From NCBI GenBank assembly GCA_963707645.1, contig CAVPQW010000009.1, positions 371,771 to 435,770 on the forward strand: DNA of 64,000 bases. The letters are read 5' to 3'. Positions within the stretch are counted from its first letter, which is position 1. The number at the start of each line of letters is the position of its first letter. Below are positions 20,699-27,700 of the stretch, piece by piece. Below the pieces are notes generated by a model. That model saw only the letters and a list, made by a program, of their open reading frames with translations. It was not told the origin of the DNA and did no database searches. The translations under genes were made by a program, and so were the position numbers. The DNA is from an uncultured Actinomycetes bacterium. Lineage in GTDB: Bacteria > Actinomycetota > UBA4738 > JACQTL01.

Positions 20699-20787
20699 GT
20701 CGGAGTGGCGGAACATGGCAGACGCGCTAGGTTGAGGGCCTAGTGGGCGAATAGCCCGTGGGGGTTCAAATCCCCCCTCCGACACCA
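20699..20787 (+). tRNA. tRNA-Leu (anticodon GAG), type II with long variable arm and encoded CCA
   Basis: The acceptor stem is GTCGGAG paired with CTCCGAC. The anticodon loop is TTGAGGG. A long variable arm and a T-arm GGTTCAAATCC follow, ending in ACCA. Confidence 0.9.
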
Positions 20788-20788
20788 C

Positions 20789-21790
20789 TCTGAAACTGAT
20801 GGACGTCGGGTACAGACTCGGGCCTTCGGAGCGAAGGAGGACCGATGACCGACAGGGAGCTGGACCGGCGGGCCGCGCATCGTCTCGCGGTCATCCGCCA
20901 CGTCCAGGAGGTGACCCGCAACGTCAGCAAGACCTGCCGCTACTACGGGATCACGCGCCAGGCCTACTACAAGTGGCTGCGCCGCTACGAAGCGGGCGGT
21001 GTGGCAGCCCTCCGGGACGGCAGCTCCCGCCCGCGCACGAGCCCGAGGGCGACCAGCGCCGAGGTCGTGGGCAAGATCGTGTATCTGCGCACGACCTACC
21101 ACTTCGGCCCGCAGAAGATCGCCATGTACCTTGAGCGTTACCACGGGCTGAGGCTCAGCCCGTCGGGGATCTGGCGGATCCTGCATCGCCTCGACATGAG
21201 CCGGCTCCCGGCATCGCAGCGATACCGCCGTCAGAAGGATCGCTGGAAGCGGTACGAGAAGCCGCAGCCCGGCTCACGTGTGCAGATCGATGTGAAGTTC
21301 ATCGCACCGCTCCCCGGGTCGCGGCGCAGGTACTACCAGTACACCGCGATCGACGACTGCACCCGGATCCGTGTCCTGCGGGCATACGAGCGGTGCAACC
21401 AGGCGACGTCGATCCGATTCCTCGACGAGGTCCTCGCGCGCCTGCCGTTCCCGGTGGAGACCATCCAGACCGACAACGGCGCTGAGTTCCAGTCGGGCTT
21501 CCACTACCACCTGCTCGACCGGGGCATCGGACATGCGTACATCCGGCCAGCGACACCTCGTCTCAACGGCAAGGTCGAGCGCTCCCATCGGATCGACGCG
21601 GACGAGTTCTACAAGCTCCTCGAGGGCGTCGTCATCGACGGCTCGGGGCTGTTCGCCGAGCGTCTCCGCGCGTGGGAGGACTACTACAACTTCGACCGCC
21701 CACATGGGGGCCTGGGTGGCCAGACGCCCTATGAGAGACTGCGGCAGAAGACTGGGGCCCAGGTGTGACCGGCCATCGTCAGTTGCACAC
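20789..21790 (+). mobile_element. IS481-family insertion sequence with imperfect terminal inverted repeats and a 15-bp target-site duplication
   Basis: The left repeat is tctgaaactgatggacg and the right repeat is the reverse complement of ...cggccatcgtcagttgca. The flanking direct repeat cccctccgacaccac lies at 20774-20788 and 21791-21805. That repeat is the last 14 nt of tRNA-Leu plus one base. Confidence 0.8.
20845..21768 (+). CDS. IS481-family transposase (DDE integrase core)
   Basis: The 307-aa ORF has an HTH N-terminus and an rve core with QIDVKF...YQYTAIDDCTR...QTDNGAEF. Confidence 0.85.
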   Translation: MTDRELDRRAAHRLAVIRHVQEVTRNVSKTCRYYGITRQAYYKWLRRYEAGGVAALRDGSSRPRTSPRATSAEVVGKIVYLRTTYHFGPQKIAMYLERYHGLRLSPSGIWRILHRLDMSRLPASQRYRRQKDRWKRYEKPQPGSRVQIDVKFIAPLPGSRRRYYQYTAIDDCTRIRVLRAYERCNQATSIRFLDEVLARLPFPVETIQTDNGAEFQSGFHYHLLDRGIGHAYIRPATPRLNGKVERSHRIDADEFYKLLEGVVIDGSGLFAERLRAWEDYYNFDRPHGGLGGQTPYERLRQKTGAQV

Positions 21791-21964
21791 CCCCTCCGAC
21801 ACCACCGCTGACCAGCGCAACGCTCGAAGAACACGATCTCACCCGAAAGGCCGATCGAGGCTCCCGCCTACGCCCTGGTAGGCTGACGGCGGCGATCCGA
21901 CCACCCGCGAGGCGTATCGTCTCTCCTCGGTGACGTCACGAAAGCTGCGCGGTTCGCCGCGACA

Positions 21965-22972
21965 GTGGAGGGCACGCAGATGAGTCAACCTGGGCACACC
22001 GAGGCTGCTCCCGACCCGCCTCCGAGTACTCGGCGGGCGATCCACATCGTCGCCGCCGTACTTGTGGGCGTTGTCCTCCCCGTCGCCCTGGTGGACACAC
22101 TGGTCGGGCACTTCGCGGCCGACGCGTTGTTCCTTGCGCTGTTTCTCGGCGTCCTTGGCAGCATGATCGGCGGCACACGCCGGATGGTGTACCTCGCCGT
22201 GCCGTTCGCGGTCGCTGGTGGTCTTGGAGCGTTCACCGCGTACGACTGGTGGTGGGTTGGCCTCCTGACGCTGTTGGGGGTCGTTGCCGGCGCTGGGATC
22301 CGGTGGGGGTGGCTGCCTTCACTCCTGATGCTTCCGTTCATCGCCACGTTTGTCAGCCCGGTCTCGTCGGGACGACACGCAGTGGCCTACGGCATCTATG
22401 CCGGGATCGGCCTGCTCTACGGCGTCGTGCTGGCCCGCCGCTTCAAGGCCCCTGCAGCAGTCGAGGGTCAACGGCTGTCAGTTCCAGCTGCGGTGGCGGT
22501 GGCGGCGGTGATGGGCATTGCGCTGTGCGGCACCGCGGCGATCGGTGTGGCATTGGGATGGACCGAGCCGTACTGGGTGCCAGAGCCGATCCTCATCCTG
22601 ACCCTGTACATCCTGATGGGGAAGCGAGAACGCATCCGGGAGAAGGCCCTCGCCACCACGGTCGGCGTCGTTGTCGCAGTGCCGGTAGCGATCGTGGCTC
22701 CGCCGACGTGGGCGATCTCCGTCATCGCCACCGCAGCCTTCGTCTTGGCACTCACGCAGTACAAGAAGAGCTATTGGCGCTACTACAGCCTGTTCACGTT
22801 TGCTCTCGTCCTCGCGCTCTCGCCACCTGGACACGTTGGCGCCGAGGCGGCACACCGTGGCTCGGAGATCCTCATCGGCATCGGCGTTCTCGTCGTCGGT
22901 CTCGGTGTCCTTCACGCACTTGGCCGGTGGTTGGCCAAACGTGAACCGGTGCCGGTACTCGCTGAATCCTGA
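21965..22972 (+). CDS. Multi-pass membrane protein, possibly FUSC-like aromatic-acid exporter
   Basis: The 335-aa ORF has about 8-10 hydrophobic helices. It has no soluble domains, so the family assignment is tentative. Confidence 0.45.
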   Translation: MEGTQMSQPGHTEAAPDPPPSTRRAIHIVAAVLVGVVLPVALVDTLVGHFAADALFLALFLGVLGSMIGGTRRMVYLAVPFAVAGGLGAFTAYDWWWVGLLTLLGVVAGAGIRWGWLPSLLMLPFIATFVSPVSSGRHAVAYGIYAGIGLLYGVVLARRFKAPAAVEGQRLSVPAAVAVAAVMGIALCGTAAIGVALGWTEPYWVPEPILILTLYILMGKRERIREKALATTVGVVVAVPVAIVAPPTWAISVIATAAFVLALTQYKKSYWRYYSLFTFALVLALSPPGHVGAEAAHRGSEILIGIGVLVVGLGVLHALGRWLAKREPVPVLAES

Positions 22973-22998
22973 ATCGGCTCGAAGTCAGGAGGCACACC

Positions 22999-25547: not shown

Positions 25548-25790
25548 GATGCGTGTCTACGCTCCTGTCTACGCTCCGAGCGGAACGTGCTGGGACGGCG
25601 AGGGATGTCGACCTCATGCCGGGCCTCGATCTCCAGGCACGGCGTGAGACGCGGTGGAACCCTCAGACATGGCGCTCGCCCGATTGAGGGCCTAGTGGGC
25701 GGAATAGCCGTCAGGGCGTCAAATCCCCCCTCCGACACCATCTACCTGCGGAAACGCAACGCCTCCGGGCCTTCGCCGGCCGGCCCGGGG
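25548..25790 (+). repeat. Copy A of an att-like repeat of ~240 bp that contains the 3' half of tRNA-Leu (anticodon loop to CCA, 25684-25740)
   Basis: The segment ttgagggcctagtgggcggaatagccgtcagggcgtcaaatcccccctccgacacca matches the tRNA-Leu 3' half. It is preceded by the tandem motif tgtctacgctcc x2 at 25554-25577. The downstream flank is homologous both to the native tRNA flank and to copy B. Confidence 0.75.
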
Positions 25791-26209
25791 GCGTCTGTCT
25801 GCCCATTGTCTGCCCACTCACCCGAAGATGGCGTCTCCGATGGCGTCCGCGGCTCGCTGGAGCCGCTCCGGCCGGGTGTGTTGGTAGATGGCCTGCGTGA
25901 TGGCGGGGGAGAAGTGGCCGAGCAGCGTGTGTTCTCTCACTGAGATGGGCGACAAGACGCCGCGGTTCTCATGTCGTTCGGGGGAACCGGTCCAAGACGG
26001 GTCGAGGGGACGGCGGCTTCACTCGTTGCCGCTGGGTGGTCGCCGGCCAGCGATGGACGCAGCGTATCGTCCGATCGGGGGATGGCGCCCGATCCAGGGG
26101 TCAAAGTAGCATTCGATCGCTTGGACGCTCTGCGCGAGGACGACGATGAAAAGACGGGAATGGGCGGGCGCGCTCCTGAGCCGGGCAAAGCCCGCGACCC
26201 GGTCCATTC

Positions 26210-27188
26210 GTGCGCGCAGACGGGCGCTGGTCTCTCTCGGCACCATCGTGTGCCTGTATGCCGGTGCTCGTCGCACAACCCGCAACCGCCGGACTCGCGA
26301 AGCCCGACCTCGTCGTCCTCTCGGGAGGCTTCGCACACGTTACGGCCGACCTCCAGGAGCAGCGATGGTTCTTCCGCGGAAAGGCCTACCAGCTGACGTG
26401 GTCGGCACGGATCAAGAACGTTGGCGACGCCCCCGCCGGCGCGTCGCGGGCAGGCCTCTACTTCAAAGGAACGAAGACGTGGTCTCGCTTGAGCACGCTC
26501 GCTGTCCCCAGCTCCTGCGGGGGAAACGGTGTCGGTGAAGGACAGTTTCCAGAAGACGTTCGATGTCTCGACGTGGAAATACGGGACCTACCCCCTCAAG
26601 ATCTCGCCGGACGTCGGTCGTGTGGTCGGTGAGGGCAAGGAGGCCAACAACTGCCGGACGCTGCCGTTCTCGTTCTATGTGATTCCCACATTCATCTTTG
26701 CTCACGTTGGGGGAACCAAGCCGGCGTTCGACGACGACAGAGCCGGCGTGACTGCGACCTGGGAATCCGGCCTCTTGTCCTTCGGGGGCCTCCGCAGCAA
26801 ACCGCCCCCCTTGGGAAACCAGGGGATCATCGACTACCCGCTCTGCTGCGGGCCGACCCTGTCGTTCACGATTCAGGGGACCGACTCGGTCGGCTGCACG
26901 TACAGTGGATCCGGGGAGGACGAAACGTTCCCCTCGACGAATCGCCTCCGTCTGATCTTCGGCCGCGGGTCCGCGAACTACCGCGCTCACAATCTGATCG
27001 ACGGGACTTTCACGTTCAAGGTCACCATCGTCTGTGACAGCGACACGTACGTGATCGACTGGGGCTCGTCGAATTGCAGCCCCTGGTGGTGGAACACCAC
27101 CGAAGGAAGCCTTGGCGGTTTCCCGATCCGGGGCTCGAAGAACGGCAGGGGGTCCTCCTTGATGCTGACCCCGACTGCGACGGTGTGA
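26210..27188 (+). CDS. Hypothetical secreted Cys-rich protein with locally lower GC, probably frameshifted near 26510-26540
   Basis: Two overlapping protein-like ORFs (26210-26632 and 26529-27188) read as a single protein. The codon usage is atypical, with AT-rich stretches around 26650-26720. Confidence 0.4.
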
Positions 27189-27454
27189 GCTACCAATGGA
27201 AGTTCTCCGCCTGATCATCCAGCGCGAGCTCGGCATGGGCCCAGTGGCCGAGTGCGCACTCCTCACCCCGTACCCAGCGGACCCGTCGCCCAGCGGTTGC
27301 AGTCCAGGACGAACGCCACGAGGACGTCCTCGGCGGCATGCTCAAGCGCATGAGGTCGGATGCCATCTTCCTGGCCGCCGCCACGGGGCGCATCGATCCT
27401 TCAACCCGAGCGGCAATGTCTATGAGGCTGTCTCGACCTTTCTTAGCGCCGCCC

Positions 27455-27700
27455 TAGAGGTGTCTACCATCTGTCTACGATCCGAGCGGAACGTAGTGGG
27501 ACGGGGCGGCATTGTGACCTCGATCGGGCCCCGATTCAGGCACGGAGCGGTACCCCGTGGCATCCTGCGGGACGGAGCTCACCGCATTGAGGGCGTAGTG
27601 GGCGAATAGCCCGTGGGGGGTTCAAATCCCCCCTCCGACACGGTTCTGACCTGCGGAAACGCCAGGATTTGGCGGCCTTCCAGCCAACCCCAGCCGGGGG
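27455..27700 (+). repeat. Copy B of the att-like repeat with a tRNA-Leu 3' fragment (27597-27642)
   Basis: About 75-80% identical to copy A over ~240 bp. It carries the tgtctacMatcc x2 motif at 27461-27483 and ends in ...ggttcaaatcccccctccgacac. Confidence 0.75.

Follow-up and report, generated by a model that had tools for sequence, protein, structure and literature searches.

Probable remnants of two stacked tyrosine-integrase elements at a tRNA-Leu(GAG) gene of an uncultured actinomycete, with a later IS481-family insertion on the tRNA end

Actinomycete integrative elements such as pSAM2 (at tRNA-Pro) and SLP1 (at tRNA-Tyr) insert into tRNA genes at sites of the anticodon-loop class. In elements of this type, the attachment (att) sites are identical from the anticodon loop to slightly past the tRNA 3' end, the integrase gene adjoins the att site, and the tRNA is restored upon integration. 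Here we describe what is probably a small, decayed array of tyrosine-integrase elements downstream of a tRNA-Leu(GAG) gene in an uncultured Actinomycetes bacterium. The window, meaning the whole stretch of DNA that was analyzed, comprises 64,000 nucleotides (positions 371,771 to 435,770 of contig CAVPQW010000009.1, assembly GCA_963707645.1), and coordinates given without a locus number refer to it; L numbers denote the loci with which it was compared.

Islands that pile up at one small-RNA gene have been described before. At the ssrA gene of Dehalococcoides, stacked islands are separated by direct repeats of the 3' end of the transfer-messenger RNA (tmRNA) gene, and some of these islands have no integration module and are proposed to be either cis-mobilizable elements (CIMEs) or fixed insertions (PMC3146451). 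Streptococcal CIMEs have formed by accretion (PMC5704250), and in the tycheposons of Prochlorococcus later arrivals push older elements inward, leaving fragmented integrases and partial tRNAs behind (bioRxiv 10.1101/2020.12.28.424599). The array presented here is an instance of this known phenomenon, the stacking and decay of islands at a tRNA gene, in a different phylum and with very small elements.

Att cores, arms and an integrase stub downstream of the tRNA

ARAGORN finds a single tRNA in the whole window, the tRNA-Leu(GAG) gene that an earlier note, made from the sequence alone, had placed at the same position, and Rfam, run on 20.3-28.3 kb, agrees and reports no other family. The 3' half of this gene is the same sequence as in two relatives, L002 and L004. 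The 20-mer TCAAATCCCCCCTCCGACAC, which covers the tRNA T arm and acceptor end, has three exact matches in the 64 kb, at 20766, 25719 and 27622, where none is expected by chance (none in 100 shuffles). Two of these fall in partial copies of the gene, A (25684-25740) and B (27587-27643), which begin at the first base of the anticodon loop (TTGAGGG) and extend to the tRNA end; the earlier note had delimited A correctly but started B 10 nt too late, at 27597. A profile built from the two repeats and run against the window with nhmmer recovers both of them (E 7e-67 and 5e-65) as well as the tRNA itself (2e-15) and nothing else, and neither this profile nor the 20-mer locates a core copy in the 64 kb outside the 7 kb downstream of the tRNA.

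The first of the three sites is interrupted by an insertion sequence (IS) of the IS481 family. Once this is taken out, the sites have in common a core of ~75 nt that begins in the anticodon loop and continues for ~18 nt past the tRNA, and all three cores are oriented alike (20732-20788 plus 21806-21823, 25684-25757 and 27587-27662). The post-tRNA motif reads cgctgaccagcgcaacgc at the first site, ctacctgcggaaacgc at 25742-25757 and ctgacctgcggaaacgc at 27646-27662, so that the downstream similarity previously claimed for all three sites is real, with the first copy displaced by 1 kb. The sequence at 21790-21820, which comprises the right target duplication of the IS and the motif, is identical to the post-tRNA sequence of the closest relative, L002, at 30 of 31 positions. 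Core A has a mutated T arm (gtcagggcgtcaaat). Core B has four changes; it shares 96% identity with the 3' half of the L004 tRNA, and its ...acacgg ending is also present in the functional tRNA of a close relative, L081. The DNA downstream of the gene is in this way bounded by the tRNA and by direct repeats of its 3' part, as in elements that target tRNA genes.

Cores A and B form the inner part of a longer repeat unit whose limits are sharp in both pairwise alignment and profile search (25553-25757 and 27460-27662). At ~205 bp this unit is shorter than the ~240 bp first proposed, while the ~130 bp of common sequence said to precede the tRNA fragments does exist, as upstream arms of 131 bp (A) and 127 bp (B). 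The arms are 74% identical to each other; shuffled arms have a mean identity of 52.5% and a maximum of 58.6%, and the 130 bp directly outside the unit on either side are 54% identical, which equals background. Among the collections scanned the arm sequence is specific to the window: a profile search did not find it in 80 related genome loci, and exact-pattern scans with TCCGAGCGGAACGTNNTGGGACGG gave 0 matches in viral and metagenome contigs.

Short repeats are arranged around these units in a regular fashion. There are nine copies of the heptamer TGTCTRC in the window, close to its chance frequency, and six of the nine form three same-strand tandem pairs with a spacing of 11-12 bp, one at the outer end of each of the two arms and one 56 bp past core A. 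Local shuffling, repeated 1000 times, gave 0.007 such pairs on average and never more than one. Arm-type repeats are thereby present, at the level of sequence, on both sides of a core, and we regard the pairs as putative integrase-binding arm sites. Paired repeats at the position matching the third pair also exist in L002, L017, L024, L031 and L072. The G+C-rich hairpin between core A and the integrase end takes the place of the terminator-like hairpins of related elements, with analogues in L002, L009 and L072. A hairpin common to the flanks of A and B was considered and rejected, since the two flanks are 54% similar, which is background; the resemblance is therefore no evidence of a P' arm after B.

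A remnant of the integrase itself lies 78 bp from core A and reads towards it. It has the conserved C-terminus of tyrosine recombinases, including the tyrosine-bearing Y-x-H region. When the C-terminus of the L002 integrase was compared with the whole window, this stub was the sole match (43% over 35 aa, E 7.5e-5); among fragments of 20.8-27.8 kb it came first when the L009 and L017 integrases were compared in full length, and second for that of L037. Integrases that are intact or longer occupy the equivalent position in L002, L009, L017 and L037. The earlier statement that no integrase remains is not strictly true: no working integrase exists in the window, but these ~40 codons, which the note missed, are left. 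Six related integrases used in tblastn and phmmer matched only with their last 20-37 residues, and nothing integrase-like was found upstream of the stub. A longer, frameshifted integrase at ~25.8-26.6 kb (strings 'PNDMRTAAS' and 'GLRESGG') was rejected: Pfam returned nothing on the three minus-strand frames of this region, and 26146-27188 is a separate plus-strand gene. After the first, tRNA-side core there is neither an integrase trace nor an arm-type pair.

The architecture of related loci provides a template for these features. The exact SecG sequence of the window has no entry on record; a scan for relatives of SecG yielded 80 genome loci, nearly all from uncultured Actinomycetota or Acidimicrobiia. 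The closest of them is L002, whose neighboring ABC proteins are 85-94% identical to those of the window; there is no close sequenced relative. Downstream of its tRNA, L002 has the motif and a hairpin, after which two direct repeats (TTCTACCCG) precede the stop codon of an integrase on the minus strand, at which the contig ends; past the motif, its integrase-proximal arm has no similarity to the flank of the first site in the window. Among the 55 fetched loci with tRNA-Leu(GAG), 11 besides L002 have a minus-strand integrase match ≤430 bp from the tRNA end. The motif (roughly YTGACCWGSGNRAAYG) follows the tRNA in six integrase-bearing loci and in few integrase-free ones, and L072 combines it with a hairpin and a repeat pair. 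Complete single elements are present in L017 (4.9 kb) and L011 (2.6 kb). On their left side, the tRNA and motif are followed by repeated GTCAAC sites and the integrase; at their far end, two GTCAAC-type repeats precede a core copy by ~175 bp (L017) or ~125 bp (L011), and this copy runs from the anticodon loop to past the motif, so that the motif stands at both ends of the element. The arm-plus-core units in the window have this same anatomy. The elements in the window and in L011, L017, L019 and L024 span ~2-5.5 kb. In L019 (12116-16890) and L024 (12094-17724) the identity block is shorter, extending 24-29 bp from the T arm, and attR has no post-tRNA motif; a different integrase class would thus use a second sublocation of tRNA-Leu(GAG).

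Closer relatives point to a site that varies between strains. Four contigs of very close relatives (SecG 96-97% identical) have the same tRNA except for its last 2 nt, and the three that extend past the gene diverge from the window and from each other ~10 bp beyond it. The post-tRNA flanks differ among the window, L002, L081, L082 and L084. Contigs L081-L084 end 0-210 bp past tRNA-Leu(GAG), and L085 and L086 end ~410 bp past it. Such divergence and such contig ends are the pattern expected of a strain-variable hotspot that breaks assemblies.

Table 1. Coordinates of the features at the tRNA-Leu(GAG) locus and in its right-hand flank.
Feature	Position	Strand	Remarks
Intact tRNA-Leu(GAG)	20699..20787	+	ARAGORN; Rfam tRNA, 50.2 bits; part from 20732 on is the left att core copy (attL)
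Left copy of 16-bp duplication ccccctccgacaccac	20773..20788	+	Last 15 nt of the tRNA plus 1
IS481-family IS, 1001 bp	20789..21789	+	Transposase open reading frame (ORF) at 20845-21768
Right copy of 16-bp duplication	21790..21805	+	ccccctccgacaccac pattern matches at 20773 and 21790
Post-tRNA core part of first site (cgctgaccagcgcaacgc)	21806..21823	+	Parted from the tRNA by the IS, displaced by 1 kb
Element Y, interior	21824..25552	+	Without integrase and without P' arm repeats
FUSC_2 membrane protein	21965-22972		Pfam; element Y
Ion_trans_2 K+ channel-like protein	22999-23544		Pfam; element Y
Phosphoesterase gene	23789-25146		Pfam; split between two frames; element Y
P arm of element Y (repeat arm R_A)	25553..25683	+	TGTCTAC tandem pair at 25554 and 25566
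Internal att core A	25684..25757	+	Decayed tRNA 3' half (25684-25740) and motif (25741-25757)
G+C-rich hairpin (cgcctccgggcc...ggcccgggggcg)	25760..25793	.	Read from the sequence; between core A and the integrase end
Putative P' arm-type pair, TGTCTGC twice	25796..25813	+	At 25796 and 25807; 5 bp from the integrase stop codon
Tyrosine integrase 3'-terminal stub (…LLGHFSPAITQAIYQHTRPERLQRAADAIGDAIFG*)	25818..25943	-	Translation; ~40 codons left
CARDB-like secreted-protein gene, cargo of element X	26146..27188	+	Two frameshifts, near 26262 and 26520
P arm of element X (repeat arm R_B)	27460..27586	+	TGTCTAC tandem pair at 27461 and 27472
Att core B (attR)	27587..27662	+	tRNA 3' half ending ...gacacgg (27587-27643) and motif (27644-27662)
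Lipoprotein-like ORF	27669-28235		In low-GC3 block 27669-31378, with several hypotheticals
500-aa protein with RTX calcium-binding repeats	29876-31378	-	Same low-GC3 block

Proposed history and competing explanations

We consider it likely that two tyrosine-integrase elements integrated successively at tRNA-Leu(GAG) and subsequently decayed. The earlier note had read the three sites as attL, an internal att and attR of two stacked elements of this kind, and the arm pairs, the integrase stub and the architecture of the related loci support that reading. In such a history, the 3' part of tRNA-Leu(GAG) would serve as attB for small tyrosine-integrase elements of Acidimicrobiia-like Actinomycetota. 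Their attP would consist of a ~130-bp P arm with two arm-type repeats, the ~75-nt core, a hairpin with two further repeats and an integrase gene reading towards the core. Two related elements arriving in succession, each restoring the tRNA, would produce the order tRNA (attL), element Y, core A, element X and core B (attR); core A is the Y/X junction and has the attP-like order of P arm, core and P' arm. Element Y would then have lost its P' arm and integrase outright, and X would have kept its P' arm with the integrase reduced to the last ~40 codons. The cargo genes would have acquired frameshifts, and cores A and B would have drifted because they were no longer in a functional tRNA. Later, an IS481-family element would have inserted on the tRNA 3' end, with a 16-bp target duplication that preserves the tRNA.

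From its gene content the array would be immobile on its own, and Y appears to be CIME-like, with att sites at both ends and no recombinase. Excision of Y might occur only through a cognate integrase acting in trans; alternatively, Y might be lost by homologous recombination between the cores. The order of these events is what we infer from the present layout, and we assume that crossover takes place where the core begins in the anticodon loop, the usual position in sites of this class. On that assumption core B would be the original tRNA end, with which the ...acacgg ending of the L081 tRNA agrees. We likewise place the right end of the array at core B by inference, with the boundary at 27662.

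Several observations weigh against this history or parts of it. Core A is more decayed than core B, and the simplest order, in which B was displaced first, predicts the opposite. Cores A and B have one variant of the motif, and the tRNA site and L002 have another; a crossover at the opposite end of the core would explain this distribution equally well and would agree with the greater decay of A. The motif also follows core B, implying that the native flank already had it or else that there is a third and still older remnant on the right. The evidence for the integrase is short, at 35-37 aligned residues: Pfam, including Phage_integrase, is silent on the stub because the remnant is too short, and a word-based search returned no homologue of it. 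The frameshifts in the cargo could be assembly errors. An empty site, with the tRNA joined to the sequence at 27.7 kb of the window, was not found, and the contigs of the close relatives stop 0-210 bp past the tRNA. Finally, neither for X nor for Y was an intact relative found, which together with the missing empty site limits the case for independent integration and for the 27662 boundary.

The content of the two segments is compatible with small, degraded islands. In Y, the membrane protein, K+ channel and decayed phosphoesterase recognized at the outset could be assigned to Pfam families, the last of them in two frames, and homologues of the Y genes are absent from the six closest genome loci. 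What had been called a low-GC hypothetical is a gene in X that encodes a CARDB-like secreted protein and bears two frameshifts. Protein P0241 matches three frames of 26146-27188 in order with 82-100% identity (93% overall), and family member P0242 has a CARDB domain; a search of metagenomes with this protein found no related locus. The second frameshift is a 7-for-9-nt replacement and not a homopolymer slip. Genes split between frames also occur outside the array, namely a saccharopine dehydrogenase (N-terminal domain at 48931-49632, C-terminal domain at 49598-50005) and a DUF5122 beta-propeller protein (33922-34380 and 34377-35063). These splits are either real pseudogenes or assembly indel errors, and they therefore bear on the weight that decayed cargo can carry as an argument.

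Composition and gene repertoire further define what the array is. The G+C content at third codon positions (GC3) is 0.74-0.85 for genes from Y to ~31.4 kb (0.78-0.85 for those of Y), compared to 0.93-0.97 for the conserved genes upstream of the tRNA, and we count the low GC3 of genes in Y, X and beyond in favor of two successive integrations. Ten ORFs of the segments had no match in PHROG. Pfam domains for phage structure, packaging or replication, the mark of a prophage or satellite, were not detected among the ORFs of 20.8-31.4 kb, and neither were domains for conjugation or replication. Because it has no transfer, replication or phage genes, the array is not an integrative and conjugative element (ICE), an actinomycete ICE (AICE), a prophage or a satellite. 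Segment Y, situated between attL and core A with no recombination or transfer genes, has instead the make-up of a CIME.

Three other explanations deserve consideration. A single integration could have been followed by local duplication of attR, arm and core together, in which case A and B would be paralogous. The homology of the arms at 74% identity, the motif variant that A and B have in common and the mere 1.9 kb of segment X would all be accounted for in this way, but the homology ends exactly at the limits of arm and core, the adjoining 130 bp being at background, and 26% divergence between arms with no co-duplicated sequence left would need very selective decay. Moreover, the P' arm that follows core A, with its hairpin, repeat pair and integrase stub, is laid out as a junction of stacked elements would be. 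We therefore regard duplication as improbable. More improbable still is that the ~205-bp unit represents a dispersed, non-autonomous, tRNA-derived repeat, similar to a miniature inverted-repeat transposable element (MITE) or a short interspersed nuclear element (SINE), of which two copies happen to lie near the parent tRNA. While the unit is short and non-coding, contains a tRNA fragment and is accompanied by no intact integrase, there are no more copies in the 64-kb window or in the 80 related loci. The exact-pattern scans of viral and metagenome collections likewise turned up nothing that would speak for a MITE family. No terminal inverted repeats were noticed at the unit ends, flanking duplications are absent, Rfam shows the tRNA alone, both copies lie downstream of the tRNA and are co-oriented with it, and in L017 and L011 the single elements, which do bear an integrase, terminate in an arm and core of this kind.

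The remaining alternative concerns the right boundary. Core B might not be the chromosomal end, and the low-GC3 DNA at 27.7-31.4 kb would then be an older remnant that has lost its attR, making three or more elements in total. This we also find unlikely, if by a shade less so than duplication. The element-associated motif after core B is in its favor, as are the GC3 of 0.74-0.84 and the lack of homologues in related loci for genes at 27.8-31.4 kb, and synteny with L001 and L004 comes back only at ~61.6 kb; block 27669-31378 may be what is left of an older island. Beyond B, however, there is no arm-type pair, integrase trace or core copy, and the flank there is unrelated to the P' arm after A (the 54% identity given above). 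The single elements of L017 and L011 have the motif at both ends, so a motif past attR needs no further element, and the genes at 32-61 kb have ordinary chromosomal functions, among them a transketolase-like protein, a DNA ligase, a cold-shock protein, DUF3039 and RNHCP. Collinearity is seen between 61582-63482 of the window and 18464-20210 of L001 and 10766-12049 of L004, resuming ~41 kb past the tRNA in the window and ~8 kb past it in the other two. An island reaching to ~61 kb was considered as well and rejected, given the ordinary chromosomal genes of 32-61 kb and relatives only ~70% identical; we attribute the break in synteny to rearrangement between distant genomes and not to one large island.

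The island scar itself matters little, adding one more example of stacking and decay from poorly known soil Actinomycetota. Of more practical use is the att anatomy that it defines for elements of 2-5 kb at tRNA-Leu(GAG), consisting of a 75-nt core, a 130-bp arm, paired repeats and the post-tRNA motif. With its help, island boundaries can be set in metagenome-assembled genomes, and it accounts for the breaks that assemblies of these organisms show directly behind tRNA-Leu(GAG).

An IS481-family element on the tRNA end

The IS at the first site had been listed among the cargo. It is instead a later insertion on the tRNA end that has a 16-bp duplication of its own and splits attL. Its ends (TCTGAAACTGATGG... 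and ...CGTCAGTTGCACA) were fixed by comparison with other copies. The right terminus reads ...TTGCACA and the left one TCTGAAACTG (TATAGAACTG in other copies), with 11 of 17 terminal positions matching. The transposase has the Pfam domains rve, rve_3, HTH_32, HTH_28 and LZ_Tnp_IS481, which identify it as an IS481 transposase, and it is 89% identical to P0124, a protein labelled 'IS481 family transposase' in its source. The clade is large: >4900 proteins fall at E ≤ 1e-30, and many have an identity of 75-91%. In L113 (~120-160), the right end of the IS (…CGTCAGTTGCACA) is followed by 2 nt (GT) and then by the left end (TATAGAACTGACGG), which is the junction of either a tandem dimer or a circular transposition intermediate.

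The target duplication of 16 bp in the window differs from the 5-6 bp found at CTAG sites of other copies. We inspected ~14 distinct insertion contexts of this clade, and in five of them the IS stands on a tRNA-type 3' end with a long duplication. These are tRNA-Leu(GAG) in the window (16 bp) and tRNA-Arg(TCT) in L090 (10 of 16 bp); in L091, a tRNA-like 3' fragment that adjoins an integrase gene and has a duplication of 15 bp; in L092-L101, a 3' end resembling that of a tRNA or tmRNA, with an exact duplication of 14 bp; and in L102-L106, tRNA-Asn(GTT), with a 14-bp duplication and an additional 100 bp of sequence. Insertions of the classical CTAG type, with repeats of 5-6 bp, are seen in L108 and L110, and approximately in L109/L112 and L089. 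A second IS481-like lineage was also met at a tRNA end. It is 1296 bp long, encodes a 394-aa rve transposase that is 28% identical to that of the window, starts with TGTGATGTCGCG… and has subterminal GTCGCGAGACATC repeats. In at least five genomes, of Acidimicrobiia, it adjoins tRNA-Leu(GAG), 0-3 nt from the end (L021, L052, L051 twice, and L085/L086), and where both ends are visible it has duplicated 14-17 bp of the tRNA end. The sites of this lineage are L052 12208-13503, L021 ~12181-13476, L051 12259 and 18446, L085 10566, L086 5295 and L035 12499-13248.

These observations raise the possibility, which we put forward tentatively and at somewhat less than even chances, that IS481-family elements have a second mode of insertion at tRNA 3' ends, with a stagger of 14-17 bp and a duplication that restores the final ~15 nt, so that the gene stays intact. 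The sample of contexts is small and partly selected, the second lineage having been seen only in loci chosen for tRNA-Leu(GAG). We found no report in the literature of IS481-family elements that target tRNA ends. If this mode exists, DDE elements would compete with tyrosine-integrase islands for the same tRNA hotspots. If confirmed, the behavior would constitute a new example of site-selective DDE transposition, and it is a more interesting lead than the island scar.

Comparison with described systems

Among the actinomycete elements, pSAM2 and SLP1 differ from the array in that Rep and TraB/FtsK-like genes were not found here; the likeness to this type is one of layout. The tycheposons of Prochlorococcus also integrate at tRNA genes by means of a tyrosine recombinase, as proposed here, but they belong to another host phylum and another element family, and replication, helicase and phage-like genes are missing from the array, of which only remnants are seen in the window.

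The ssrA islands of Dehalococcoides offer the closest parallel in arrangement. There, as here, islands are stacked downstream of one small-RNA gene with direct repeats of its 3' end between them, the integration module lies on the reverse strand beside attL, and some islands without a module keep their att sites and are probably fixed. The two systems differ in the recombinase, a serine recombinase in Dehalococcoides and in our case apparently a tyrosine integrase with arm-type sites. They also differ in the extent of the repeats, 20 bp there compared to a ~75-nt repeat with a 130-bp arm here. The array at tRNA-Leu(GAG) measures ~7 kb and has no member with a working integrase; mobility of the CIME kind would be attributed to it by analogy.

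The IS on the tRNA end has its own set of relatives. With the IS481 family it has in common the rve DDE domain, an N-terminal HTH, the IS481 leucine zipper and a right end in ...ACA. Classical IS481 elements insert at CTAG-type sites with 5-6-bp repeats, and so do other copies of the window clade, whereas its long duplications occur specifically at tRNA-type 3' ends. In ISTde1, a subgroup of the related IS1202 family, the direct repeats measure 15-17 bp (bioRxiv 10.1101/2022.12.17.520857), a length comparable to the 16 bp in the window.

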